Virus record (IMG/VR): IMGVR_UViG_3300011102_000109
Coordinates: 1-35,697 of that record
Direction: 5' to 3' (one strand)
DNA length: 35,697 bases
From: a virus
Taxonomy: Duplodnaviria > Caudoviricetes
In this document: positions 1 through 34,709 of the stretch, piece after piece
Layout of the letters: each line of letters begins with the position of its first letter
How positions within the stretch are numbered: the stretch's first letter is position 1
Made by a program: the position numbers and the translations under genes
The notes under the pieces: model-generated
Seen by the model: only the letters and a program-made list of their open reading frames with translations
Database searches by the model: none
What the model was told of the DNA's origin: nothing

Positions 1-3000
1 TATTTGTGTGGAAGAATTCCAGTTGCCCAAACTAATAGTTAAAGGCGTTATCTTCCACATATTAGACAAAGAAGCAGAACTACCGTTAATCTGAACCCAG
101 AATGCTGCCAATATCCCCGGCGCATTCCATGTTTCACCAGACCTCTGATAGAACATGTGACCTCCTGCTGAATGGATAGCGTATGAGGAGATCGTCTCAT
201 CGTTAGATACAATGGTTAATCCCTTTGCCCCAGTAGCGAACGTACTTATCGACACGCCCGTTCTGGTCGCACTATCCGTTCTAACCGATATTAATGGTGA
301 AATTGGGGATTCGTTAAGTCTTATAAAATCTGATGATGCTCCCGCTGATTCAAATAAAATACGAGCGGTGAAATCAGGATTAGTAAGCGTATTCGAAGAG
401 ACCTGAAAGCCTCCAATGATTGAGGAGGTTATTGTAGCGTTTTCAATATACGCATTATTAATAGTAACATCTTCTATATCTCCATTCTTAAAGTATCCCT
501 CTTCTATATATGCGTTATCAATGTTAACGTCTTCTATGTCTCCGTTTTTAAAGTATCCTTCTTCTGCTTCTATCCGACCTTTTACGGTTAAGTTACCAGT
601 AATGTCCCACGAAATATTACCAGAAGCAAGGAAGCCAGAACCATCCTTGTATAATGCTATCTTCTGTGTTTCAGCCCCACCAATACCGGCAAAGTTATTA
701 ACACCAGCTGCAAACGTAATTGGGTTACTGTCATCCCCATTTATGTAAGCACGTACAACAGAAGAACTATCACGCACACCGATAACACTTCCTAGGGTCA
801 AACCTCCAGAAATAATTGTACTTTTTTGTAACGCATTCTTGAGATACTCCATCTCCTGAGGTGCTGGTGACCACTCGTTTGATACACTGCTGCCTTCTTC
901 TAACTTAATCCAAGTAATAGAAACAGAACCACCGGCAGTATTGTACACAGAAAACACTTTTGTATTACCAGCCCACGAACCACCGTAAACAAATACCAAT
1001 CGATATAAGCCACCTCCTAGTGATTGTGTTGTTCCTAAAGTATTCACCCCGTTGTCATCACGGATAGTGAACGATGTACCACTTCCTTTTATCGTTACGG
1101 TGTAAGTCTTACCACTTTCCAAAGCCTTCACAAGGTTGTATTTACCCAGTAAAGTGTTTGTTGTCGACGGAATAGGTACATCACTGCCCAACACCAGGTT
1201 AACACCACCAACTTCTAAAGCATCGTTCCAATGTGAAGCGTTAAAGCCTCCTGTATTGTTTGTATTAGCAACGTATATTTTTCCAGCATAGAATGTTTTA
1301 CCCCCTGAAGTATAGTTGCTAAACAACCTCATAAATTCACCAGCTTTATAGCTTGATGGGGGTAATGTATATGTTGTTACTTTACTATTAGCAATGTTTA
1401 AAGCATCATTAGCTGTAGTCTGTGCTGCATTAGCTGCTGATTGAGCAGTGTTAGCCTTCGTATTAATCGAGTCGGTAATGCTCTTATAAGCATTTTCAAC
1501 TGCAGTAGTGTATAAACCTATCTTATTTTTAAAATCTGTATAGGCGTTATCAACTGCCGTTTTCTCCGCAGGAGTTGTTTTCCCATCTGCAATAGCGGTG
1601 TTAATTGTAGATAGTAACGAATTTTTTGAAGAATCTAAATTAGTTTTTGCAGTTGCTAGATTCGTTTTCGGTGTCCCTGTTAACAAAGGATCGTTGTAAA
1701 CAACATTGTAACTATTTACAATCTGCTCGTAAGTTTCGTTTACAACATTTATATACTTTTCGATGCTCTTAGCTTCCGCAGCCTCAATTACACCATCTTT
1801 AAATGCCCCGTCTACGTACTCCTCAAGATTTTCGGCTGCGGTTGCTGCTGATGCTGCTGCTGATTGAGCTGCATCTATTTTACTTTGTGTATCAGCAGGA
1901 CTTTCAACCCAATCGAATACCGGTATTGACGATAACGATATTCTGATCCTCCGAATGTTTATGACATTCGAACTGTTCATTGCATCATAAAAAGCAATTG
2001 AACCTGTCGTTAAGCCGGGCTTTTGACCCCAGTTTTTTATTTTTGCAGTAAAGGCGAACCTCTGCCACTCTGTTGTAGCGGCAACTATAAATGGTCGTGA
2101 TGGAGGGGTGTCGATTGAGATACCACTCTCCTGATACGGGTATATTTGAATGTTTGCCGGGATCGTTACTTTTAAATCAAAACTTATCGATACATCTTTT
2201 CCTACATAAGGCTCAAAGATTGAACGAACACCGAACTCATAAAACCTACTTGTACCCCTAACTATCTCACTGTTGTTCAGCAGATTTACGCTACTGATTT
2301 GCAGTTCATCGATTGCATCATAAGGGTTAGACTTCCATTCAGTAGCCTTATTACCTTTCTCTATCTGATAACCTTGTTTATAAGTCCCGTCAGAAGAGTT
2401 TGGAGACCATTTAATATAGGCTACACCGGAAGGTATTGTTATTATTTCTACAGCATTATTACTTGTTGAAACGTATCGGCTAATAAACGCTTTATTTTCA
2501 TCGTAATAAGCTATACGGCTTTCAAGCGAGGAGGGCATTTGAAATGTATATTGCTCACCTGCTTTCACTTCGATGAAGTCTGTAACAAATGCAGTAGAAG
2601 ATGCTGATTCAGTACCGTTTGATTGTATTAGATATGAATTTCTTACTTTAGAAGCTCTAATAAGGTTTACTGCTCCAATTTGAATATTATCTACCGTCTC
2701 CTGTGCAGCATCAGCCAACTGTTTTGCTTTAGCAGCAATAGCGTTAAGTAAGTCTGTTCTTGCATCGTAATATGCCTTAAATGTATTCCTGAAAGTGGTA
2801 GCATTTATATCACTCGTTGTTGATAAGTTAGACAACAACGGTGTAATATAGCTTGAAAGATTATTATAAGCGTTTTGATAAGACGTTTTACTTACTCCAA
2901 AATAGTCAGCCTGAGATTCGTTTTTAGTCTTTTCACTAATTATCGAATCCCACTCTACCTTTACTTGTTTCTTTTCAACAGGAGTAAGTTTACTATCGAG

Positions 3001-6000
3001 TGACATATCAGCTAACAATGCATTAGCTGCATTAGCTGCTGTCTGTGCCGCAGCTATCTTTACCTCCGTATCTGAAAGAGAAGGTTTCCAATTTGTTGAT
3101 ACGTTCCCCTCCTCTATTTGTATCCTTCGATAATCCAGCGGAACCCCTACAGCCCCAGATGTGTTCAACGCTAAATTAGAGCTACTATTTGAAGTAAAAA
3201 GATGAGCCTTACTGGTTATACGCACCCATACATTGGGTGGTACAGACGTTTCCTGCATACTATTTACATCTGCAAGAAAACGAAGTCTTACATTAACATT
3301 ACTACTATGTGAATGTCTAACATCAACAGAAGCTATATATGTTTTACCTGCAGAGTAGGATATGCTAGCTCCCACCACAGAAGCAGCCTTATCTATATTA
3401 GGAGTGACTCTTCGGTAAGGTATCGGCTCGTCATTCATCAATACAGCAGTACCAGAACCAGAGCTTGACGGTGATAGTAGCAACGCTTCACTGTTGTCAA
3501 GCAAGTTAATACCTCCGACCTTGATGTTATTAAGAGCATCGGTTAATTGAGTATTTGTAACAGCGTTACCTGATACTATAATACTTTCAACATCGATATG
3601 TTCTGTACGTATCTTACCACCGCTAATGAGTGTGGTATTACCCGAACCAGAAGGTCCACGAACAATGAGGTTATCGGTATCAATAAGATTGTTTCTAAGA
3701 TAACCCCCTTGCATGATGGTATTACCGAGCTTAGCTACTTCAATTTTGTCAGATAAAGCTGGCTTCCAATCTGTTGCAATCGTACCTAATTCTACTTGAA
3801 CTCTTCTGTAATCTATTACTAAACCAGTAGCTCCAATAGTACTTAAAATAATGTTTGTAGTTACATTTGAGGAAGGAGTGAAAGGTTTTGAATAGATTCT
3901 TGTCCATGTATTAGGAGGAACTGATGTTTCAGTCACAGTATTAACATCAGCCTCAAATCGTATTCTGAATGTAACATTACTACTATGCGAATGTCTAACA
4001 TCTACACTTGAAATGTAAGTTTTTCCGGCTATGTATGAGAAATTAGCTCCGTATAATGAAACGTTTTTATCAGAATCAGGTGTAACTCTTCTATATGGAA
4101 TAGTTTCATCACTCGTTATTACAGCAACACCTGTACCAATGTTTGTATTAAACATTGCTAACGCTTCACTATTCGATATTAAATTCTCTCCTCCGATTTG
4201 AATAGAGGCTATAGTAGATTCACGAAGATCATCAGGATTTGGACTCCAATCTGTAGCCTTATTACCACGTTCTATTTTTATTTTAGCATTCCTTATTTCA
4301 TTTACTGTAATTGTACTATCATTTGTTTTTCTAAATAAAACAACACATTTAGCACAATTTGAATTAGTAGGAGAAAATAAAATAGGATTGTTACCGTTTT
4401 TAGGTAACCATGTATTATCTTTTATCCATACATTGCTGGAGTTATATTCCTGAATAGAAATATCATAATCGGAAGGTATAGTAATACAATAAGTATTACC
4501 ATAAGACATATCTAATAGTACAGTTCTTACACGGGTTGTACTATCTACATATCCATTCGGATATGTCTTACCACTCATATCACCGATATTATGATTATAT
4601 AATTCAGTGACACGAAGTAAATTAGTACCTCCAATAACTATACTATCAATTGCTTCCCATTCAGAAGAAACTACAGGAGTTGTATAAGAAGTGGTACTAT
4701 TGGAATATGTTATTTTAAGTCTGCTCCATAAATATTTTCCAGGCTGCCAAGCTGGAGGGGTAGTAACCCAAGAACCTCCGGTCTGTGTTGTTTTACTAGT
4801 CGAAAGGTAATATTCTTCTACTACATTCGTAATGCTTACCCCATCTTTAGGAGTAATATTAGCTGGAGTAGAAGTAGTAGTATTGCTATTAGAATAGTAA
4901 GTTTTAGTTCTGGTCCACAGTTGTTCTCCGGTTCCTAATGTGGGAGCTGTTGTAGTCCATCCCGAAGTAGGAGGTGTTGAAGGATTGGTATTCTTAGCAA
5001 ATTCTATATCTACGGTAACAATGGATACACCGTCATTACCTTTGAAACTAATGGCATAACTAAATTGACGTGTAAATGTTTTACCGTCTATAACAATGTT
5101 AATCGGAACTGTACCTGACGGACTTGTCATAGAACTAGTAACATTAAATGTAATAACATTACCAGCTATTGAAGCCGTCATGCCGGTAGGCATTGTACCT
5201 ACCGTTATAGATGTAGGTGTTATTGAATTAGCTCCTTTATAAGATATTACTTTAACAGTTGTACTTCCAGCTATTGCAGAATTGGTATTACCCGCAAATG
5301 TATGAGCTTCGTTTTCCAATATTACAGTATAACCGTCTTGACCATCTACTCCATCTTGACCGTCTCTACCAACAGCTCCACCTCCTATGATACCTTTACC
5401 ACCTCTGTATGCAATAACATTTACACTTGTGCTATTAGTTAAACTGTAACTCTCAGCAGCCTCACCAGGTTTTAACGGCCAATTACCATCAGCATCTTTA
5501 GACATACCTATGATAGCATAAGGTTGTCTATAATATTGAGCAGGTTTACCAGGTTTACCTCCAAGATTAACAAATAAGTCTCTTAAAGGACCACTTTCAG
5601 CAATAGCATCGTAACTATATATACAAACAATTTTATCTGTTAAATCTTCTACATAATTAATCAGATTAGTTATATTAGTACCACCAAGATAAGTATCAAA
5701 ACCTTGTTGACTAACAAGATTAAAATCTTTATCCAAAACAACTACTCTATGTCCTCTACTACCGGCTGTAGTTATAACCTCACCGTTTTTCCAAACTCCT
5801 CCTTTTAATGGAGAAGCTAGAGCAGAAGTTCCCCAACATTCCAAATACGGAGCTTGACCATCTGATACCACAGCTATAGTATATGTATCAGAATTAGTAC
5901 CGTCCGATGCTCTAATTGATAATGTCTTGAAAGTAACTGTATTTGGGTTAATGGTAACAGTTTCTCCGGATCTTGACACACCAGTAGGAACTGTAGTTGA

Positions 6001-9000
6001 GAAACTACCCCCGTTCACAGAATACTGCCAAGAAGTTATATTTGTATTTTGAGCTATTCCGGTAACTGTAAATGATGTAGACGGAATCTTATTTCCATCA
6101 TTATCTATTCTTATAATCTGAGTAGAACCTGAAAGAGTTACCAGTTTAGCAGTTTTACTTAAAATATCATTTACAGATGGAATCCAATCGTCACTCAGTA
6201 TATTACCTAATGATATCCTAATCCTTCTGATAGTGATAATATTACTAGAATTACTAGGATCATAAAAAGCTATTGATCCGTTAGAACTACCGGGTATTTG
6301 TCCCCAATTTTTAACTTTGGTAACAAATGAAAATCTTTGCCAATTTGTAGTGGCTTGTACGATTTTCGAAGAACTTGCAGGAACATCAATACTTATACCA
6401 GATTCTTGATATGCATAAATAGAAATTGAAGCTGGTATTGTAACTTTAATATCAAAAGAAATACAAATATCTTTACCCACATAATCTTGCAAAGCAGATC
6501 TTACCCCTAATTCATAGAATCTATCTGTACCACCTTTTTCTCCCTCACTGTTATCTAATAAGTTAGTATTTCCTCCAACCTTAATATTATCGAAGAAATC
6601 TTTTTCAGAAGGTGTCCAATCTGTACCTTGGTTACCTCTTTCTAATTTTATCTTATAAATAGTAGAAGCAGTTGTTCCATTATTAGGAACTTGATATATC
6701 CACAAGCTAGTGTTAGCAGCTGTTATACCGCTATTATAAATTTTCCATTTAAAGGCTTTCCTAAAAATTCCAGGTGAAACTTCATCAGATTTAGTAATAT
6801 GTCCTATTAAAACAGACCCTCCTGAATTGTACAGACTCCATTGAGTTCTATCCGAACCTAATTCACCCCAAATAGTTACACATACTTCTTCATCTGGTTG
6901 TAAAGTATCAGCTAAACCGTAATTGGCAATATTATAATTAGTACTAGTTTTTACTACATTAGAACTATGTAATAAGTTTGTACCACCGACTAAAATACTT
7001 CTCTTTAAGTCGGTAGCACTCATTGACCAATCTGTAGCTTTATTACCCTTCTCAAGTTTTACTCTTGTTAATTTAATCTCACGGTTATTTGAAGAACCTG
7101 CTTGACCTGCGTATATAACAAGATTGTAAGTCTGATTTCCTGCAAAAGAAGATGGAGTAGTAAACGTGAGTTTTTGTTTTTCAGTACTACTTATAGGAAT
7201 ATCTCCTAATATAATAGTATTACTTCCGTTATGAGCAGCTACAGTCATAGCAGTTACAGAAGTACCACTTATAATTTGACTCTTCTCAATAGAAAGAGTG
7301 TACTGAGTATTAGGTTGTAAATACCCTTCAATCTCAAAAAGTTTAAAGGTATATGTATTAGATGAAGGTCCTATAGTAGCTTCAGCTCCACCACTTAAAA
7401 GGTTATAAGAACCTATGTTAATATCATTAAGTGCTTGGTTTAATTGTGTATTAGTTACACCACCAGCGTTCAACAGAATCTGACTAGCATTGATACGAGC
7501 AGAATCTATTGTACCTGTTTTAATTGCAGCAGCATCTAACTGTAATGTATTAATATATGCTGCATTAATAATATTAGATTTAATAGCATTAGCATCTAAC
7601 AAAACAGTATTAATCAGACCTCCTTGTATAAGTGTCTGCCCTCCAATAGCTACATCGGTTATATCTTGAAATGCCAGTGAACGAAGATTACTTACTAAAT
7701 CTTGAAACTCAGAAGAGGTAGTATCTACTTCTTCCCAAATATCCGATATTTCACCTTCTAACTCATCAACTTTACTTTTACGAGCATTTTCTATAGCACT
7801 GATGAGAAGATTCCTAGAAGATTTGTAGTCATTTATATGTGTATTAAAATTCGACGGGGGAGAAAAAGTTTCAGTGCTGGTATTTACAATGGTATTGAAA
7901 TCATTATATAATGTTGTATAATTAGTATTATAATTTGTTACAACACTTCCTGTAATACCATATTGAGAAACTAAAGCATCGATACGAAGTTTTTCTGAAG
8001 CTAATTCCAACATTTCAAGCTCGATCCTCTTTCTATCGTTAGCATTCAGTAGATTTTTATTTACGAGGTTATTGAGTCTAGAAATAGCTGTATTAGCTGT
8101 AGTATCATCTGTATACTTAGAAGCTTTCTGCCAATCTGCTGAATTATAAGATTCAGCAGCTGTACGAGCAACAGTAGCTCTCATGATATCTCCGGAAGGA
8201 CCTTGCACCCATATATCACCAATATCATATGGAGGGAATGGTGTTACAGTAAATATCCTTCTTTTAGAATCAGCAGTATCTTTAGCTTCAGATGCTAACT
8301 GTAAAGCTGCTTGTAAATCAGCATTAACAACTTCCTGCCAGAAATAATCAGAACCGTCTTTAACATAACGGAATGTTTTTCCGTTTTCAGTATTATACCA
8401 TATATCTCCTAAGTGATCTTCCTGCTCATTGTTATCAATCCAATCTGATGTAGGAGGAAGTGAATTATTAGGATCGTAGGTATAGAAATGTTGTTCTGAT
8501 AAACCGTCTAAAGCATTTTCTAAATCTTGAAGTTGACCCGGAAGTACATTATTAATGTAATTCTGAAGTTGAGCTACCGTAGTAGCATTATTTTGAAGAG
8601 ATGTGAAATCTGATTGTAAATTAGAATCGAATGAAGAAAAAGTTACAGCACCGTTAAGCTGAATATTTTTAGCTTGTATCTTAACATTAGAAGGTTCTAA
8701 GTTTATTAAAGAAACAATATTTTCTCCATTAAAATCAGTTTGACTTACCTTTAAAGCTATTTGATTAGCATTCTGAGTAATAGAAGATTCAGCAGAAGTC
8801 ACTCTGTCTTCTAGTTCATCGAAAACAGTTTGACTTACTTTACTCGCAATCTGTGAACCTAAAATAGTTATGTTAGATTCAGCACTTGTAACTCTTCCAG
8901 ATAAAGTGTTAAAATCTGTTTGGTTAACTTTTAATGCAATCTGATTAGCATGTTGTGTAATAGTAGATTCAGCATCTGCAACCCTTCCTTCAAGATCTTC

Positions 9001-11313
9001 AAAATCACTTTCAGAAACTTTTGTTGCTATCTGATTGGCATGTACTACAAGAGTGGATTCAGCAGAAATAACCCTGTCTGTAAGATCATCAACTTCTTCT
9101 TTAGATGCTTTAAGAGATATTTGTCCTGCTTGAACTATAATTTGAGCTTCAGCAGAAGTAACTCTATCTTCTAACTCATCTACTACAGTTTTATCAGCTT
9201 TTAAAACAATCTCATTAGCGTTTTGTGTAATATTAGTTTCAGCTGTTGTAACTCTTAAAGATAAGTCAGATATAGCATTGTTAGTGTTACTTACAAAGTT
9301 ATTATAAGTTGTTTGAGATACTTTAGAAGCTATCTCGTTAGCTTGTATAGTCAGCTGTGCACTATGAGCATCTACTGTATCGGATAAATCATCCACAACA
9401 GTTTTATCAGCTTTAAGTGCTATTTGTGAAGCTGTTTGATTTACAGTGGTTTGTAAATTTGTAACGGTTCCCTCTAAAGTGTCAAAATCACTTTGACTCA
9501 CTTTAGTTGAAATTTCACCAGCTTGTACAATAAGTTCAGCTTCTGCTGAGCTAACTCTGTCTTCTAAATTATCTAGATCAGTCTGAGAAGCTTTTAAAGA
9601 AATCTGTCCAGCTTGAACAACAAGTTGAGCTTCTGCTTCTACAATTCTATCTTCAATATCGTCTACAACAGATTTATCTGCTTTTAAAGCTATTTGATCA
9701 GCAGTTTGAATTATAGCTGTTTCTAAATCAGTTACAGTATCAGATAAAGCATCGAAATCAGTTTGAGATACTTTTGTAGCAATTTGATCAGATTGTATTG
9801 AGAGTTGTGAAGAATGTTCTGATACAACACCTGTTAAATCATCTACAACAGATTTGTCAGCTTTCAATGCTATTTCAGAAGCTGTTTGTATAATCTGAGT
9901 TTGAAGATTATTTACTTCTCCGGTTAAAGTATCAAATTCAGTATATGAAACTTTTGTAGATATTTGATCAGCTTGTATATCCAACTCAGCTTCAGCTTCT
10001 ATTAATCTGTCTTCTAATTCGTCAACAACGGTTTTATCAGCTTTTAGATTAATAGATTCTGCTGTCTGAGTGATCTGAGTTTCTAATGATTCCACATAAT
10101 CTGATAAGTTACTAAATTCAGTTTGACTGACTTTAGAACTAATTTGATCTGCTTGTATAACTAATTGAGATTCAGCTTCTGTAACTCTTCCCTCCAGATC
10201 ATCAACTGTAGTTTTATCAGCTTTTAACGCTATCTGCTCAGATGTTTGTATAATTTGAGTTTGAAGATTGGTAACAACACCTTCTAAAGCATTAAACGTA
10301 CTTTGCGAAACTTTAGTAGCTATCTGACCAGCTTGTATAGTCAGTTCTGATTCTAATTCAGTAACTGCATCGTTTAGTTGATCAACTGTAGTTTTATCAG
10401 CTTTTAACGCTATCTGTTCTGCGGTTTGAGTAATAGTGGTCTGTAAATCAACAACAGTTCCTTCTAAGGTATCAAATTCACTTTTTGAAACCTTACTAGC
10501 AATCTGATCAGCTTGAATAATTAATTCAGACTCCAGTTCTGTAACTGTACCACTTAATTGATCAACAATTGTTTTATCAGCTTTCAGTTCTATTTGTTCA
10601 GCTGTCTGAATGATTTGAGTTTGGAGATTAGTTACAGTTCCTTCTAAGGTGTCAAAAGCACTCTGAGAAACTTTAGTGGCTATCTGATCAGCTTGAATAA
10701 TAAGTTCTGCACTGTGTTGAGAAACAATATTCCCAAGCTCATCTACCAAAGATTGATCAGCTTTCAGTGCAATTTGAGAAGCAGTTTGAACTATCTGAGT
10801 TTGTAATGTCTCAACTAATTCGTCTAGCTGATTAAATTCAGTTTGAGATACTTTTGTTGCAATTAAACCAGCTTGAACAGTAAGTTCCGATTCTAACTCG
10901 GTAATTGATCCGCTTAATAGGTCAACAACAGTTTTATCAGCTTTTAAAGAAATTTCTGTTTCTGTAATAGAAAGTCTGGTATTAATATTTGTAACAACTC
11001 CTTCAATTTCACTGAACGAAGATTTAGTTACATAATTATCTAGAATGCTTAAATCAAAGCCACTATCAATTATATCCTGCAATCTTTGTTCAAATTCTTG
11101 AATCTTCTGCTGAAACAGTTCTTGAAATTCAGCAGTTTTCTGAAGAAGTTCATTGTACTGATCAAAAAAGCTAGGACTTACACTGGAAGCAATGTTAATT
11201 TTAGTAACAGGAGTTCCAGAAGAACAATGAGCTATATTATAAGATTTAACATTGGAAGTGCAGCTAGGATCAGTAGAGGGTTTTATGATAAACTTTTTCT
11301 TTTTACCAGACAT
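1..11313 (-). CDS. Giant modular tail fibre / receptor-binding protein, at least 3771 aa, 3' end outside the window
   Basis: ATG at 11313 (MSGKKKKFIIKPSTDPSC...). The same frame is still open at position 1 (...MWKITPLTISLGNWNSSTQI) and the ORF track lists no closed minus-strand ORF here. It contains about 25 30-aa repeats, nine 'IGGxNLL...K(L/I)ExGNKATDW' beta-sandwich-type modules, a GG/ILEI-like domain and a short Gly-X-Y tract. Confidence 0.85.
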   Translation of the reverse strand, partial: MSGKKKKFIIKPSTDPSCTSNVKSYNIAHCSSGTPVTKINIASSVSPSFFDQYNELLQKTAEFQELFQQKIQEFEQRLQDIIDSGFDLSILDNYVTKSSFSEIEGVVTNINTRLSITETEISLKADKTVVDLLSGSITELESELTVQAGLIATKVSQTEFNQLDELVETLQTQIVQTASQIALKADQSLVDELGNIVSQHSAELIIQADQIATKVSQSAFDTLEGTVTNLQTQIIQTAEQIELKADKTIVDQLSGTVTELESELIIQADQIASKVSKSEFDTLEGTVVDLQTTITQTAEQIALKADKTTVDQLNDAVTELESELTIQAGQIATKVSQSTFNALEGVVTNLQTQIIQTSEQIALKADKTTVDDLEGRVTEAESQLVIQADQISSKVSQTEFSNLSDYVESLETQITQTAESINLKADKTVVDELEDRLIEAEAELDIQADQISTKVSYTEFDTLTGEVNNLQTQIIQTASEIALKADKSVVDDLTGVVSEHSSQLSIQSDQIATKVSQTDFDALSDTVTDLETAIIQTADQIALKADKSVVDDIEDRIVEAEAQLVVQAGQISLKASQTDLDNLEDRVSSAEAELIVQAGEISTKVSQSDFDTLEGTVTNLQTTVNQTASQIALKADKTVVDDLSDTVDAHSAQLTIQANEIASKVSQTTYNNFVSNTNNAISDLSLRVTTAETNITQNANEIVLKADKTVVDELEDRVTSAEAQIIVQAGQISLKASKEEVDDLTDRVISAESTLVVHANQIATKVSESDFEDLEGRVADAESTITQHANQIALKVNQTDFNTLSGRVTSAESNITILGSQIASKVSQTVFDELEDRVTSAESSITQNANQIALKVSQTDFNGENIVSLINLEPSNVKIQAKNIQLNGAVTFSSFDSNLQSDFTSLQNNATTVAQLQNYINNVLPGQLQDLENALDGLSEQHFYTYDPNNSLPPTSDWIDNNEQEDHLGDIWYNTENGKTFRYVKDGSDYFWQEVVNADLQAALQLASEAKDTADSKRRIFTVTPFPPYDIGDIWVQGPSGDIMRATVARTAAESYNSADWQKASKYTDDTTANTAISRLNNLVNKNLLNANDRKRIELEMLELASEKLRIDALVSQYGITGSVVTNYNTNYTTLYNDFNTIVNTSTETFSPPSNFNTHINDYKSSRNLLISAIENARKSKVDELEGEISDIWEEVDTTSSEFQDLVSNLRSLAFQDITDVAIGGQTLIQGGLINTVLLDANAIKSNIINAAYINTLQLDAAAIKTGTIDSARINASQILLNAGGVTNTQLNQALNDINIGSYNLLSGGAEATIGPSSNTYTFKLFEIEGYLQPNTQYTLSIEKSQIISGTSVTAMTVAAHNGSNTIILGDIPISSTEKQKLTFTTPSSFAGNQTYNLVIYAGQAGSSNNREIKLTRVKLEKGNKATDWSMSATDLKRSILVGGTNLLHSSNVVKTSTNYNIANYGLADTLQPDEEVCVTIWGELGSDRTQWSLYNSGGSVLIGHITKSDEVSPGIFRKAFKWKIYNSGITAANTSLWIYQVPNNGTTASTIYKIKLERGNQGTDWTPSEKDFFDNIKVGGNTNLLDNSEGEKGGTDRFYELGVRSALQDYVGKDICISFDIKVTIPASISIYAYQESGISIDVPASSSKIVQATTNWQRFSFVTKVKNWGQIPGSSNGSIAFYDPSNSSNIITIRRIRISLGNILSDDWIPSVNDILSKTAKLVTLSGSTQIIRIDNDGNKIPSTSFTVTGIAQNTNITSWQYSVNGGSFSTTVPTGVSRSGETVTINPNTVTFKTLSIRASDGTNSDTYTIAVVSDGQAPYLECWGTSALASPLKGGVWKNGEVITTAGSRGHRVVVLDKDFNLVSQQGFDTYLGGTNITNLINYVEDLTDKIVCIYSYDAIAESGPLRDLFVNLGGKPGKPAQYYRQPYAIIGMSKDADGNWPLKPGEAAESYSLTNSTSVNVIAYRGGKGIIGGGAVGRDGQDGVDGQDGYTVILENEAHTFAGNTNSAIAGSTTVKVISYKGANSITPTSITVGTMPTGMTASIAGNVITFNVTSSMTSPSGTVPINIVIDGKTFTRQFSYAISFKGNDGVSIVTVDIEFAKNTNPSTPPTSGWTTTAPTLGTGEQLWTRTKTYYSNSNTTTSTPANITPKDGVSITNVVEEYYLSTSKTTQTGGSWVTTPPAWQPGKYLWSRLKITYSNSTTSYTTPVVSSEWEAIDSIVIGGTNLLRVTELYNHNIGDMSGKTYPNGYVDSTTRVRTVLLDMSYGNTYCITIPSDYDISIQEYNSSNVWIKDNTWLPKNGNNPILFSPTNSNCAKCVVLFRKTNDSTITVNEIRNAKIKIERGNKATDWSPNPDDLRESTIASIQIGGENLISNSEALAMFNTNIGTGVAVITSDETIPYRRVTPDSDKNVSLYGANFSYIAGKTYISSVDVRHSHSSNVTFRIRFEADVNTVTETSVPPNTWTRIYSKPFTPSSNVTTNIILSTIGATGLVIDYRRVQVELGTIATDWKPALSDKIEVAKLGNTIMQGGYLRNNLIDTDNLIVRGPSGSGNTTLISGGKIRTEHIDVESIIVSGNAVTNTQLTDALNNIKVGGINLLDNSEALLLSPSSSGSGTAVLMNDEPIPYRRVTPNIDKAASVVGASISYSAGKTYIASVDVRHSHSSNVNVRLRFLADVNSMQETSVPPNVWVRITSKAHLFTSNSSSNLALNTSGAVGVPLDYRRIQIEEGNVSTNWKPSLSDTEVKIAAAQTAANAANALLADMSLDSKLTPVEKKQVKVEWDSIISEKTKNESQADYFGVSKTSYQNAYNNLSSYITPLLSNLSTTSDINATTFRNTFKAYYDARTDLLNAIAAKAKQLADAAQETVDNIQIGAVNLIRASKVRNSYLIQSNGTESASSTAFVTDFIEVKAGEQYTFQMPSSLESRIAYYDENKAFISRYVSTSNNAVEIITIPSGVAYIKWSPNSSDGTYKQGYQIEKGNKATEWKSNPYDAIDELQISSVNLLNNSEIVRGTSRFYEFGVRSIFEPYVGKDVSISFDLKVTIPANIQIYPYQESGISIDTPPSRPFIVAATTEWQRFAFTAKIKNWGQKPGLTTGSIAFYDAMNSSNVINIRRIRISLSSIPVFDWVESPADTQSKIDAAQSAAASAATAAENLEEYVDGAFKDGVIEAAEAKSIEKYINVVNETYEQIVNSYNVVYNDPLLTGTPKTNLATAKTNLDSSKNSLLSTINTAIADGKTTPAEKTAVDNAYTDFKNKIGLYTTAVENAYKSITDSINTKANTAQSAANAAQTTANDALNIANSKVTTYTLPPSSYKAGEFMRLFSNYTSGGKTFYAGKIYVANTNNTGGFNASHWNDALEVGGVNLVLGSDVPIPSTTNTLLGKYNLVKALESGKTYTVTIKGSGTSFTIRDDNGVNTLGTTQSLGGGLYRLVFVYGGSWAGNTKVFSVYNTAGGSVSITWIKLEEGSSVSNEWSPAPQEMEYLKNALQKSTIISGGLTLGSVIGVRDSSSVVRAYINGDDSNPITFAAGVNNFAGIGGAETQKIALYKDGSGFLASGNISWDITGNLTVKGRIEAEEGYFKNGDIEDVNIDNAYIEEGYFKNGDIEDVTINNAYIENATITSSIIGGFQVSSNTLTNPDFTARILFESAGASSDFIRLNESPISPLISVRTDSATRTGVSISTFATGAKGLTIVSNDETISSYAIHSAGGHMFYQRSGETWNAPGILAAFWVQINGSSASLSNMWKITPLTISLGNWNSSTQI
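8740..10980 (-). repeat. Intragenic 90-nt (30-aa) tandem repeat, about 25 units, with a 180-nt higher-order period
   Basis: Alternating 'QIALKADKTVVD' and 'QIATKVSQ(S/T)EF' units. The KAD codons recur every 180 nt (about 10945, 10765, 10585, 10405, 10225, 10045, 9865, 9685), with one longer unit near 9210-9320. Confidence 0.9.
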
Positions 11314-12943: not shown

Positions 12944-12958
12944 TATATAATAATATAC
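12944..12958 (-). promoter_or_regulatory. Candidate phage late promoter, copy 1 (GTATATTATTATATA)
   Basis: Exact 15-mer (+ strand TATATAATAATATAC) about 26 nt upstream of ATG 12917, just after a terminator. Repeated at 19607, 27742, 29341 and 30735. Confidence 0.65.
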
Positions 12959-16670: not shown

Positions 16671-18268
16671 TTAGAATGAACCTCCTGTAATAGGGTTACG
16701 CATTACTAGCTTCATCACTTTAGTAGGATCTTTTACCCAAATAGCAGGCATGGTTTGAGTCATGTATACTTTATAACCATTGAACTGACCACTTGAAGCA
16801 AATCCTTTGGTACGTCCCATGTAGTCCATAGTACCGTTCTGATACCACCAACGAAGTTCTTTATCCCATTCCAGTTGCAACAGGAAGATGTTATCGTTTG
16901 TATTATCGGTAACATCAAAAATGATGAAGTTATATGAACTTAGAGGATATCCATCGATAATCGGGTTTTCGATATCGTTAGTGTGTACGTTATCGAAAGC
17001 AGGATTCAGAACGAATTTCACATTAGCCAAGAATGGAATAATGTAAGAAGTATAAGCGTATCCGAATCCAAGATCCATACCTCTACCGGTGATAGCACCC
17101 AGTTCAGAAGCATTCTGGATTAATCCTGAGTTAACAGCCTCTTTCTTGATAGCTTCGTTAACTAGTTTCATGCCACCCATACCGGTTTGCACAATGATCT
17201 CAGTTTTAGGATCAGGACCTTTGAAGTCTACTTTACCGTTGTAGAAGTTGAACAACTCAGAACGGAATAGATCTAGGTTGAAACTAGATTTATTATAGAT
17301 ACGTTTAAAGGAGTTATCTAATTGACCCCAAAGACCTGTAGACAAACGGATATCATCAGGACCATCTTGTTTGATACGTCCACCTTTACCCCACATCAGG
17401 TAATTTTCGATATCGTTGGCAATCTTAGTCAGATGAGCAGCTTCTAGACGAGTTACGAATGTTCTAGACAGCTGACCGGATTGATAAGCTTTTTTAACAT
17501 ATCCGGGACCCATCTTACGTTCCATATCTTCTAAAGAAGTAACGGAAGGATCCAGACTTTTATCAAAGCTTCTCCAAATCTCAATAACAGGAACAGTACC
17601 GTCAGCATTCATACCACCTCTCATCATAAGATCAGCACGAGAACTTACTGAGAAATGTACGTGAGCTTCAGCTCCACCTACAAAGTTGTAGTACTCACGA
17701 TACCCTGTAGAGATTTCACCCAGATCAGAAAAACGTTCACCGTACTCTCCACGTGCAGAACCTACACGGAATAGTTTAGTACCAGTTTTCAAGTATTTGT
17801 TATCCAAATATTTGAAATTGTCATTGTTAACAAGAGCTACGGTGTAGATGTATCCATCACCAGCAGGGATGATATCATCATCGGTAACATACAATTCAGC
17901 TCCATTGTATTTGTCATAAGTGAAAATATCACCGTGACCAAATGCACGTTTATTAATTCAATACCTTTTTGAGCATTAGCTGGTTCAATGTCACCCATGA
18001 AGTAAGGTAGATCGGCTACCAGAGGAATTTGCCATTTCCACTCACCCTTGGGGTTAGATACATTGATGATGTTTTTACCTCCGAAAGAACTTATTTGATA
18101 AAGAGGTCTTTCAATTTTCTGAGCAAAAGCCCACAAATCAACAGGTCCAATATCCATAGGACCAGAATCTTTCAATAGATTCAGCATGTGATAGGAATCC
18201 ACGTGAGAGCTAGTTGTATAATTAGTCTCACGCATAAATATCCCATTGTTTAATACAGGTGTTGGCAT
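16671..18268 (-). CDS. Major capsid protein, split into two frames by a frameshift near 17958
   Basis: The 143-aa ORF (MPTPVLNNG...PANAQKGI) continues in the -1 frame as INKRAFGHGDIFTYDKYNGAELYVTDD into the 407-aa ORF. Position after portal and scaffold, and a joined size of about 530 aa, fit the crAss-like MCP. Confidence 0.8.
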
Positions 18269-19606: not shown

Positions 19607-19621
19607 TATATAATAATATAC
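19607..19621 (-). promoter_or_regulatory. Candidate late promoter, copy 2
   Basis: Exact 15-mer about 25 nt upstream of the scaffold ATG (19581). Confidence 0.65.
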
Positions 19622-27234: not shown

Positions 27235-27258
27235 TTCTTCACAGAAACTTTTATCTTG

Positions 27259-27329
27259 TTGCGGGAAATGGAGTCGAACCATTCTCAGAAAGGCTTATGA
27301 GACCTTCCGGATCACCGGATCTTCCCACA
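27259..27329 (-). tRNA. tRNA-Met(CAT), atypical D region, CCA not encoded
   Basis: Acceptor TGTGGGA/TCCCGCA, anticodon arm AAGGT-CTCATAA-GCCTT, T arm AATGG-TTCGACT-CCATT, discriminator A followed by CAA. Confidence 0.8.
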
Positions 27330-27741: not shown

Positions 27742-27756
27742 TATATTATAATATAC
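27742..27756 (-). promoter_or_regulatory. Candidate late promoter, copy 3 (1 mismatch)
   Basis: + strand TATATTATAATATAC, 7 nt from ATG 27734, downstream of a terminator. Confidence 0.55.
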
Positions 27757-27831: not shown

Positions 27832-27857
27832 AAAAAAGCCGGTGTGGTTACCGGCTT
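27832..27857 (-). terminator. Rho-independent terminator
   Basis: AAGCCGGT/ACCGGCTT stem plus U-run on the minus strand at the stop of the 69-aa gene. Confidence 0.8.
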
Positions 27858-28065
27858 ATACTAAATGAATACCTTTTTTATGATCGGATGATTCTATATG
27901 TCCTACCGTTGCTTTTTCATCTGAGTATAGTTGTAATGAGTAACTATAATCTTTCGGTAGGATTTTTCTATTGACACATTTGTCAATACTGTTCATAATC
28001 TTCAGTAGCGTTTCATAATCTGTTGATGTAATTCTCAGCTCTAAAGTTTTTTCAGTTTTACTCAT
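27856..28065 (-). CDS. Hypothetical protein, 69 aa
   Basis: Intact ORF in the operon, followed by a terminator. Confidence 0.6.
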   Translation of the reverse strand: MSKTEKTLELRITSTDYETLLKIMNSIDKCVNRKILPKDYSYSLQLYSDEKATVGHIESSDHKKGIHLV

Positions 28066-28074
28066 AACAAATAG

Positions 28075-28410
28075 TTAAGTTTCTTTTATGAAAATGAATT
28101 TTGGATAACTGCCGTAAATATATTTTATGACGTTTCCAAACCATATCTTGAAATCTTGAATTTCAGGTTTTGTAAATAGATATTCAAACCCTGAACCTTT
28201 ACGTTCTATTCTGGTAAGTTTACCAGAACCTGGATATTCACTTAAATATAGTTTCAACGTTACTTCGGATTTTCCTTTACTGTATATCTCTAAAAGTTTT
28301 CCTGTTTCATTTACTATTTCCAAATCTTTTTTATCTCCTGAATAATCTGATAAATCTATAAACCATTTATTACTCTGTGTGTCTTTATAAAATCTAAATT
28401 TCTTCATCAT
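28075..28410 (-). CDS. Hypothetical protein, 111 aa (resembles DUF6717-type proteins)
   Basis: 'FRFYK...KWFIDL..Y.G.K.DLE.V' and 'IWF..V..YIYG.YP..I' pattern, recognised by eye only. Confidence 0.5.
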   Translation of the reverse strand: MMKKFRFYKDTQSNKWFIDLSDYSGDKKDLEIVNETGKLLEIYSKGKSEVTLKLYLSEYPGSGKLTRIERKGSGFEYLFTKPEIQDFKIWFGNVIKYIYGSYPKFIFIKET

Positions 28411-28753
28411 CTATATTTAAGATTTCAATAGTTACGTTAGCCAATCCTTGTTTAAAAAATCCTAATCGTTTAGCAGCTTCTTTACTGACATCTATAATTC
28501 TACCTTTAATAAAAGGTCCTCTATCATTAATGATAACATTTACAGAATCCCCTGTATCATCATTAATGACTCGGACTTCTGTACCAAAAGGAAGTGTCCG
28601 ATGAGCTGCTGTAAATTTGTTTTGTCTAAATATTTCTCCAGAAGCAGTTTTTCTTCCTTCGAACTTATCCGAATAGTAACTTGCTATTCCTTTTTGTTTT
28701 ATAGGAACTAGCATACATAAACCGAATAATAATGCATATACTATCTGATTCAT
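28394..28753 (-). CDS. rlpA: RlpA-family (DPBB) lytic transglycosylase with N-terminal signal/TM segment, 119 aa
   Basis: GIASYY, GRKTASGE, TAAHRTLPFGT, INDRGPF and RIIDVS..AA..LG motifs. The start is probably ATG 28753 because the upstream part is a tRNA-like element. Confidence 0.92.
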   Translation of the reverse strand: MNQIVYALLFGLCMLVPIKQKGIASYYSDKFEGRKTASGEIFRQNKFTAAHRTLPFGTEVRVINDDTGDSVNVIINDRGPFIKGRIIDVSKEAAKRLGFFKQGLANVTIEILNIDDEEI

Positions 28754-28754
28754 G

Positions 28755-28826
28755 CGGAAACAATCGGAATCGAACCGATGAAGATATCTTACAAGACATC
28801 TTCTCTCCCCCAATGAGTATGCTTCC
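28755..28826 (-). ncRNA. tRNA-like RNA with an extended anticodon-position stem and no variable loop
   Basis: Acceptor GGAAGCA/TGTTTCC, TA linker, D arm CTC-ATTGGGG-GAG, 9-bp stem GAAGATGTC-TTGTAA-GATATCTTC, T arm ATCGG-TTCGATT-CCGAT, discriminator G. Confidence 0.7.
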
Positions 28827-28828
28827 AT

Positions 28829-28858
28829 AAAAAAACCTCCCTAAGACTAAGGAGGTTT
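28829..28858 (-). terminator. Terminator-like hairpin
   Basis: AAACCTCC/GGAGGTTT stem followed by a U-run on the minus strand. Confidence 0.65.
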
Positions 28859-29035
28859 AGGTTGAGAAATTACAAAAACATATGAGACACATGACAAGAA
28901 AGGTAATAACAAATCAATGTTCATCATATGTCCGATCTTTAGAGTCGAAATGTTAAACACCAAACAGGAGATTAACATCGAACTGGAAATGCTATTTCCA
29001 GTGATGTCATGCATTATATAAATTTATAATCTATA

Positions 29036-29296
29036 CTACTTGTAGTAGTAATTACCACCACCTATAGTTATAGTATTTGACTCATCCTTATCGGTAGACA
29101 TGTCAGATGATGATGTCAAAGAATAAACTTTCTGATGTTTGTCGTTACTTATTTCTTTTACTTGAAAAGTTGTAACCGGAAACTCAAAGAGTCTCCTTAA
29201 AAGTTTATCTTTTAAATCATCACTGTCTTTGTCAATAATGACTTTAATGCAAGGAACGTTGGATTCATCAACGTCTAGTAAAATTCTGCTTTTCAT
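29036..29296 (-). CDS. Hypothetical protein, 86 aa
   Basis: Intact ORF downstream of a promoter-motif copy. Confidence 0.6.
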   Translation of the reverse strand: MKSRILLDVDESNVPCIKVIIDKDSDDLKDKLLRRLFEFPVTTFQVKEISNDKHQKVYSLTSSSDMSTDKDESNTITIGGGNYYYK

Positions 29297-29340: not shown

Positions 29341-29355
29341 GATATAATAATATAC
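29341..29355 (-). promoter_or_regulatory. Candidate late promoter, copy 4 (1 mismatch)
   Basis: + strand GATATAATAATATAC about 44 nt upstream of ATG 29296. Confidence 0.55.
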
Positions 29356-30115: not shown

Positions 30116-30734
30116 AACGAACTTATCTTTTAACGTTCAGTACAGGACGCAAGATAAGCCAAATATTATAATAACAGATATAAAATCTATCTGAAACTAT
30201 AATATTCAGGTTTCATATTAAATAAACTGTTAATAACTTTACTGAATGGATATAACATGGGTTATTAACAGCTTTCAGCTGTTTTATGGTTTATCCGGAA
30301 TTTCTTTACCGGGACCTCCTATCTGCTCACCCTTTTACACACAACCGTGTAAAAAGTTTTACAGTAGTTAAGACCGTTTGGAGACATTTCCCTCGGTAGA
30401 CGTTAGGTAAGTCGGGAGTCTATATTTATTTATTTTACCACTCCACGGTTCATCTCATTTACGTGTAAAAACACCTCTACGAGACTATTACCTTTACTTA
30501 ATTCTTATGTTTATTGATGACCCTTCTAAGGTAGACTGAGTCTACCTCACCCCTCACCATTTGACTCAGGTGAGAAGGATACCTTGTACCATGTTTTACT
30601 GTCCCCACCGCACCGTGTACGAGTAACCGGAGTCACCTCTTCAAACCCGTATCGGGAACTTCCCCCTCACTTAGTGACGGGAGGGAACAACTCCAAAGAT
30701 CTAGTAGGAAGATATTTATACCCCCTATTCAGAG

Positions 30735-30749
30735 TATATAATAATATAC
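30735..30749 (-). promoter_or_regulatory. Candidate late promoter, copy 5
   Basis: Exact 15-mer, pointing leftward into about 600 nt with no credible ORF. Confidence 0.6.
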
Positions 30750-31002
30750 CCCCTACTACTAATATAAAATATTTTTCTGTAATAAGAAAATATAATCCTA
30801 GTCATGTTTATAAATCAGTCCATTATAGAGCTATACGGATTCTGGGTTATTTTGAATGGGTCTGTTGGATTTGAAGGAATGGGTTATTTCGGAGGAATGT
30901 GTTGGAGGGTGTGGTGGGGTCCCCCAAACGAATACCCCACCTCACTACTGGGGGAATGGACCCCCTGTTATCATTATTAATTAACTTCTAAAAACTTAAA
31001 GT

Positions 31003-33930: not shown

Positions 33931-34709
33931 AATAGCATAGGTAATCCAATGCACTGAATGGTAGTTACAATGTAATTTAATAAATAGGTAAAACATCAAC
34001 TCAAGTGTTCTATTTATCATTGTAATGATTTGAGTTAAAACCTCTTGTAATGTAAATGCTTAAAGCAGCCTAAAACTAATTAGGTATTAAATGTTAATCT
34101 TCTCATGCAATTTAGTTGTAGCTCAAGAAGTACATTACAAGTTTTATAGTGGAAAACAATCTGATGATGACTATTAGTAATTAAGTAACAGGATACATTC
34201 TTAGTTCTTAGATAACTAAGAATTAATGTGAAACTAATAGTGACTTAAACCACTTTAAATAAAAGTTGAAACCTCTTATTACTATAGACCTATGGGAATG
34301 TAGTTGTAAGTTTCATAGTGAGAAAATCCTATGAGTTAAAAGGTTATTGTTAAACCAAAACTTTAGAATCAGCTAATAAAAAAGCTGATGAAATAACTAA
34401 AGAATATGAAAACGCAAAACATAATGGTTGGTTTGATAAATATGGAAATCCATTATGTAAATATCAATCAAAAGCTACAGTTTCAGAAATAACTGTATTG
34501 GATTAATTATTAAGAACACCAGTTTCTTTGATATTGTCTTAATCTTCTAACATTGTATTTATCAATGCTCTGGATGTAGTAAGTGATATCAGTTAATGCG
34601 GGATAGACCTTATACCCTCTTATCCCAGACAATTAACTCCTTATCAAAGTTTTAGGTGTTCTTTTTTTTGTTAATATTTTATTATTTGTTTACATAAAAT
34701 AAAAATACT

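Follow-up and report, generated by a model that had tools for sequence, protein, structure and literature searches.

A tRNA-shaped RNA without a standard anticodon arm beside the rlpA start of a crAss-like phage: a possible cis mark for tRNA-processing enzymes

The acceptor/T helix and the elbow are the parts of a tRNA that are read by tRNA-processing enzymes. Allo-tRNAs were reportedly described by Mukai et al. in 2017 as having a non-canonical serine-like cloverleaf. The t-elements of plant mitochondria, which set mRNA ends there, are tRNA-derived folds with a perfect T arm and a non-canonical remainder that adjoin a protein gene on its 5' side (Forner et al. 2007, PMC1920247, in the part cited). 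A lengthened anticodon stem (6 bp) with a shortened variable region is found in tRNA-Pyl and in mammalian mitochondrial tRNA-Ser(UCN), which carry G73, one linker base, three variable bases and a normal decoding loop, and which decode (PMC7609411, in part). In the same part of that source, allo-tRNAs and selC* tRNAs combine a non-canonical serine-like cloverleaf with 8/4 or 9/3 acceptor/T branches and long variable arms. Regarding candidate phage tRNA-like RNAs, those in the cited part of Fremin et al. 2023 (PMC10690425) overlap with predicted tRNAs and have been given no function; five families are named there, none of them described with the geometry reported below, on which the supplementary tables of that source may bear.

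The DNA analysed here (the window, 35,697 nucleotides) is a partial virus record. A tRNA-shaped RNA, hereafter the element, lies at 28755..28826, where the original prediction had placed it without stating a strand; the strand is minus, read from 28826 to 28755. Counted as far as the discriminator G, the element has 72 nt, against 71 nt in other strains, and no encoded CCA. The cloverleaf claimed for it is real: the Rfam tRNA model RF00005 scored 30.9 bits, just above the gathering cut-off of 29, and the folding energy was -25.9 kcal/mol (z -3.35), with equal stability in 1 of 200 shuffles. In a numbering of 1-72 counted from 28826, the 5' strand of the acceptor stem (28820..28826) pairs with 28762-28756 in all seven positions (1-7:65-71, including one G-U) and is of the serine type (GGAAG...), followed by the discriminator G at 28755. 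U8 and A9 are present. The D arm (28803..28817) has a 3-bp stem (10-12:22-24) and a GG-containing loop of 9 nt, or 8 nt in other strains; the loop, AUUGGGG(G)A, has G18G19, and it lacks the A14 and purine 15 of the AAN-GG found in all 25 serine D-loop types listed. The T arm (28763..28779) has five of five Watson-Crick pairs and the canonical loop UUCGAUU. A 7-bp acceptor, a 5-bp T stem, a TTCRA loop, U8 and G18G19 are thus shared with canonical tRNAs, whereas A14, with its U8-A14 contact, and a variable region of either 4-5 nt or long type are missing. The core of 39-40 nt falls inside the type-I tRNA range of 38-44 nt. ARAGORN called the element tRNA-???, with a four-base anticodon and a possible-pseudogene flag.

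In place of the anticodon and variable arms, the element has a central stem-loop at 28780..28803 (minus strand) with 8-9 bp and a 6-nt loop, which agrees to the letter with the third arm as originally quoted. The statement that no standard 5-bp/7-nt anticodon arm can be drawn was likewise upheld, since each of the eight 7-nt loop registers gave at most two of five stem pairs. A 9-bp stem reaching the T stem, as first described, can be drawn at the cost of one D-stem pair; because the ninth pair, G24-C47, takes a base that the D stem needs, the cloverleaf is drawn here with 8 bp. Either the D stem keeps its 3 bp, which leaves an 8-bp third stem and a single unpaired C ahead of the T stem, or the third stem has 9 bp and the D stem 2 bp. 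The 6-nt loop can shrink to 4 nt by pairing of U33 with A38. A stem of at least 9 pairs arose in 60 of 20000 shuffles of the 24-nt arm, and eight contiguous pairs outward from 31:39 were reached by none of 168 type-I tRNAs. A gapless stem of 9 or more bp ending at the T stem was confined to the element's two strain copies among 305 tRNA-shaped sequences of type-I length from the fetched loci. Two bases form the linker and one the variable region. Compared by class, the third arm resembles anticodon arms (Thr-UGU, 1/500 shuffles; Ser-UGA, 8/500), a match that is moderate evidence because many classes were tested. It is unlike serine variable arms (z at most 0.8), so that an origin of the long stem from a variable arm is unsupported.

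Regarding the known systems, the element shares with tRNA-Ser (class II, RF00005) G1-C72, G2-C71, A3-U70 and G73, and U8-A9 followed by a CUC/GAG 3-bp D stem, but has no long variable arm, 7-nt loop or serine anticodon, and its D loop differs as described above. From the tRNA-Pyl type it is set apart by its 8-9 bp, its 6-nt loop, its two linker bases and its one variable base, and from the allo-tRNAs by 7/5 branches without a long variable arm. By the features tested the element is not a canonical tRNA, a tRNA-Ser, a tRNA of the tRNA-Pyl type or an allo-tRNA. A GGTTCRANYCC T arm next to a gene, as in the t-element fold, is present. The element would work most like a t-element, a class defined by ends that coincide with mapped mRNA ends made by RNase P or RNase Z; it differs in belonging to a bacteriophage, where the enzymes would be bacterial, and in having a C after the discriminator. 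No description of the geometry was found in the literature searched, which lay outside subscription papers and supplements.

The tyrosine or threonine identity suggested at first by the nominal triplets GTA and TGT is not the best reading, the body of the element being of the serine type. A pattern taken from the 5' end of the element, scanned over 36 of 64 parts of the collection, yielded 120 viral loci; ARAGORN found complete tRNAs in 87 of them, all tRNA-Ser with long variable arms, and made no call in 33. After removal of the tRNAs selected by the pattern, the average identity over acceptor and discriminator was 8.0/15 for tRNA-Ser (n=60) and 6.2 for the next-best isotype. The corresponding averages were 5.8/15 for tRNA-Tyr (n=13) and 4.6/15 for tRNA-Thr (best 8, n=24), and the acceptor and discriminator do not match tRNA-Thr(UGU) or tRNA-Tyr(GUA). 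The combination GGA/UCC with G73, which the element keeps, occurred in 14 of 44 tRNA-Ser, in two of seven tRNA-Asp and in no other isotype (235 tRNAs not selected by the pattern). Among 494 tRNA-shaped sequences, the best ten non-self global alignments of the element included eight serine tRNAs. A phage tRNA-Phe (L115) has exactly the same T arm as the element and was also the best non-self hit of the element's model. Acceptor and loop indicate different amino acids, and the long variable arm of tRNA-Ser is absent. Judged by these comparisons, the element probably descends from a serine tRNA. The simplest history is likely one in which a tRNA-Ser lost its variable arm and its anticodon arm then re-paired out of register; a chimera or a type-I parent, suggested by the T arm and the model hit to tRNA-Phe, may also be considered.

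The window belongs to a crAss-like phage, as seen from a Crassvirus capsid domain, a portal and a terminase; among the 15 matches listed, the nearest annotated terminases were crAss-like at 26-28% identity. The named relatives of its RlpA are mostly from Chitinophagaceae, which fits a host in the Bacteroidota. Sequencing runs containing at least half of the region's words were labelled compost, soil or sludge, or were unlabelled; two RNA runs contained fractions of 0.12 and 0.05, on neither of which weight is placed. A very long reading frame (1-11312, minus strand) runs off the left end of the window and contains repeats of the kind usual in tail fibres. At about 17895-17957 (minus strand) the major capsid gene falls into two frames, with about 22 bases missing compared with its relatives, nearly all of which have an uninterrupted gene; this is either an assembly error or a defective copy. 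Several G+C-rich inverted repeats lie at 30140-30980, at the late/early strand switch, and a weak RAGATH-34 match (34201-34279, plus strand, 25.7 bits, far below cut-off) lies in a long AT-rich non-coding stretch. Related crAss-like phages have other tRNA-shaped RNAs (L041, 59-148, minus strand; L049, 890-1131, minus strand; L133, G003 at about 2450-3800) in which the AGTCAGG acceptor, the D arm and the T arm are constant while the centres differ widely in length and sequence (48-78 nt core), and which look like a family; in L133, four such T-arm/acceptor ends occur within about 0.8 kb.

An AT-rich 14-base motif, probably a late promoter of the phage, occurs in five copies (12945-12958, 19608-19621, 27743-27756, 29342-29355 and 30736-30749), all on the minus strand and upstream of genes. 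The copy at 29342..29355 is the nearest candidate promoter for the element. The motif was present in two of 80 related loci, one of them from the same species; a control with the reversed pattern gave 4, and since the motif is nearly its own mirror image this control is no test. Read from 29355 on the minus strand, the putative transcription unit comprises an 86-aa ORF of no known family (29036..29296), a structured spacer, a terminator-like hairpin with a U tail, 6 nt, the element, rlpA, a DUF6717 gene (28075..28410), a 69-aa ORF (27856-28065) and a terminator-like hairpin (27857-27836) that closes the cassette, the last two together covering 27836..28065. The spacer (28860-29035, minus strand) is strongly structured (z -5.0 over 306 nt including the element) and varies among strains by an 18-base indel. 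A search of the spacers for ribozymes and riboswitches gave nothing near an Rfam gathering score, the spacer at 28860-29035 being without a family near the cut-off.

The terminator-like hairpin directly ahead of the element (28829..28858, minus strand) has 11 pairs and a U tail, and 6 nt separate its stem from the element. The tRNA-Met(CAU) of the window (27258-27329, minus strand) likewise follows a hairpin with the same arms. Of 60 viral loci with that hairpin and a T-loop motif, 36 (27 distinct) have a tRNA fold 4-21 nt downstream, nearly all of them ordinary tRNAs; the scan demanded the T-loop motif and had no control. As the leader hairpin also precedes ordinary phage tRNAs, it is no special signal and can be simply inherited. 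In many phage tRNA arrays (L355-L414, 36/60), the first tRNA lies 4-21 nt downstream of a terminator-like hairpin with the arms AAACCTC/GAGGTTT and a U-rich tail. The tRNA-Met has a 5-bp D stem and a 4-nt loop, and a counterpart with 75% identity is found in the tRNA arrays of the Cellulophaga phages Calle_1 and phi38:1. It sits in a spacer of about 230 nt, and none of 35 distinct relatives has a tRNA directly upstream of the next gene. Between the spacers preceding the element and the tRNA-Met no convincing alignment was obtained.

The rlpA gene (28394..28753, minus strand) encodes a 119-aa lytic transglycosylase of the RlpA family (DPBB_1), and its AUG begins one base past the discriminator. 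This start was called in six of eight cluster members, as 119 aa or, in the window-type copy, as its in-frame extension. A 144-aa reading frame that runs through the element (ATG at 28828) was rejected as giving the true start of rlpA, because it requires a fifth G in the D loop that is missing in four other copies. The 30 nt upstream of rlpA have the lowest A content (10%) and the highest G+C content (50%) among 23 starts compared, since the element occupies them. A 39-nt hairpin (28716..28754, minus strand) of borderline significance begins immediately 3' of the discriminator and contains the rlpA AUG; it is the most stable of 21 gene starts. None of 200 dinucleotide shuffles was as stable over 41 nt and 18 of 200 were over 55 nt; 37 of 300 synonymous recodings equalled it, which counts against a role in cis.

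The element is very probably non-decoding, and it is rather likely to bear a function. The original prediction of a non-decoding tRNA mimic thus stands as far as the missing standard anticodon arm and the disagreement of acceptor and loop carry it; it had overlooked the adjoining rlpA AUG, and this position suggests a role in cis at least as much as one in anti-defence. The intact processing parts, the composition of the rlpA start and the stable hairpin together favour, tentatively and at somewhat less than an even chance, a non-decoding cut mark in cis for host tRNA-processing enzymes that would head the rlpA cassette, by analogy with t-elements, and hold down rlpA translation. Late transcripts from the motif at 29355 would read partly through the terminator-like hairpin. 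The intact acceptor/T helix and the elbow formed by G18G19 and the T loop would let RNase P cut at 28826, and the upstream RNA would then be ended by the hairpin. RNase P cuts CCA-less precursors and acts ahead of RNase Z (PMC1874595, in part). Until the 3' side was cut or trimmed, the fold would cover the whole ribosome-loading region of rlpA, so that little of the wall-cutting enzyme would be made; a cut past the discriminator would yield an almost leaderless rlpA message with a 5' hairpin cap. The released RNA would gain CCA, be charged poorly and be unable to decode, because SerRS needs a long variable arm (PMC7609411, PMC7954030, both in part) and the loop is not 7 nt long. The complete scheme, in which the mimic buries the RlpA start codon, RNase P and a 3' cut free a hairpin-capped, near-leaderless message and output is tied to tRNA maturation, is a long shot.

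Several results count against the cut mark. A C directly after the discriminator suppresses RNase Z (PMC7479834, in part); the element has such a C, predicted to be paired in the trailer, which should hinder RNase Z. In the folding model, once at least 60 nt of upstream RNA are included, other pairings mostly displace the acceptor stem (probability of the stem 0.02-0.15 in the window and 0.02-0.65 in the strain L149). A designed switch between upstream RNA and acceptor strand was rejected, because the acceptor is disrupted to the same degree by 143 of 300 shuffles of the upstream sequence. Without A14 and purine 15 the tRNA core of the element is weaker, and the terminator-like hairpin would limit its transcription.

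Copies of the element were found in near-identical strains of one phage species only. In three runs, each of a separate study, the region is spanned at 95-99% identity; all of them lack one D-loop G and show no substitution inside the element among the matches listed. L149 is identical to the window except for the fifth D-loop G, whose absence removes the apparent 144-aa extension of rlpA; this identity says nothing on selection, since the whole rlpA gene is also identical. The scans for homologues, which may miss very near relatives, gave no hit to exact stem and geometry patterns in viral contigs or in GTDB genomes; a looser D-arm/T-arm pattern gave 32 loci, which were ordinary tRNAs or chance matches and no homologue, and a pattern of serine acceptor plus short core gave six loci, all coding sequence. 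With blastn against annotated phages and plasmids, no place covered 80% of the element. The covariance model of the element recovered its own genome as a control and gave no hit in 50 phage records, picked by length from 90. Relatives of RlpA were found at 10 viral and 80 metagenome loci, the same phage only in L149, and no tRNA was called beside rlpA in the 10 viral ones. Among 80 relatives found by terminase, 79 had 59-67% identity and one, at 99%, did not reach the region; rlpA and DUF6717 were undetected in these 80, many of whose contigs end too early. The search of relatives at 59-67% terminase identity revealed no element and no rlpA, and a role for the element is therefore not conserved.

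The nearest competitor, judged unlikely in itself, is a relict tRNA-Ser pseudogene, brought in from a phage tRNA array together with its leader hairpin and too young to have decayed. A single deletion would have removed its variable arm, an imperfect inverted repeat rearranged in one step would have produced the long stem, and gene insertion would have placed it near the rlpA start by accident. The restriction to one species, the ARAGORN flag, the Rfam score barely above cut-off and a leader hairpin like that of ordinary phage tRNAs fit this history, as do the tolerated D-loop indel and the uninformative strain identity. Regarding decay, all 23 pairs (7+3+8+5) and the T loop are intact and the changes lie in the D loop, the anticodon loop and the variable region; a relic would be expected to fit less well with changes that cluster in loops without a broken stem, with a G-U pair in the new stem, typical of RNA helices, and with occurrence in the window, L149 and the three runs of separate studies. 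Neutral decay was simulated from 32 serine tRNAs with 20000 runs per rate, counting runs in which all 20 pairs and the T loop survived: these were 4423 (22%) at 5% substitution, which suits the relic, 1709 (8.5%) at 8%, 475 (2.4%) at 12% and 35 (0.2%) at 20%. The intact pairs and T loop therefore favour selection on shape over decay, though modestly, since the outcome depends on the true divergence from the parent; the original claim of a structure maintained rather than decayed finds backing here only to that modest extent. The relic is kept in consideration because the leader is common, the acceptor is out-competed in the folding model and a C follows the discriminator.

A mimic acting in trans comes next and is doubtful. 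It would be processed, supplied with CCA and left uncharged, serving as a decoy for host defence proteins or enzymes that bind tRNA; in a bolder form the long stem, one C short of the T stem like many serine variable arms, would replace the variable arm, and the RNA would be serylated and non-decoding. The element has kept its serine acceptor identity and G73, both of them dispensable for a pure cut mark, and the tRNA-shaped RNAs of related phages, with constant acceptor, D and T arms and variable centres, come from the same genome region. Phage tRNAs counter tRNA-targeting defences (PMC11555353, in part), but the rescue described in that part uses functional tRNAs, not decoys. The bolder form agrees poorly with an arm that resembles anticodon arms and not variable arms, and MenT3, the sole serine-specific toxin checked, loses its preference on deletion of the variable loop (PMC11541572, in part). 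A single copy behind a terminator-like hairpin would also probably be of low abundance.

Very unlikely is a working decoder whose loop has grown to 8 nt on a 5-bp stem (UGU or UGUA) and which would function as a threonine tRNA or a +1 frameshift suppressor. It would suit ARAGORN's drawing of that stem and loop, the exact Thr-UGU heptamer in the loop (the best match among arm classes) and the type-I length. Its open loop, though, is 5.5 kcal/mol less stable than the closed 8-bp drawing, its acceptor is unlike that of threonine tRNAs, and a frameshift target in the major capsid gene, the sole split gene examined, was rejected because the missing bases, not a slip site, explain the split.

The weight of the element is limited by its occurrence in one phage species, and without processing it would be no more than a common relic. 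The usual fate of tRNA-like RNAs in phages is to be classed as undetermined or pseudo and then ignored. The element traces a path leading from a class II tRNA to a fold that does not decode but retains exactly the parts used by RNase P, RNase Z and the CCA enzyme. Processing, if it occurs, would make it a compact and testable case of tRNA punctuation in a bacterial virus, with a wall-cutting enzyme under the control of tRNA maturation.
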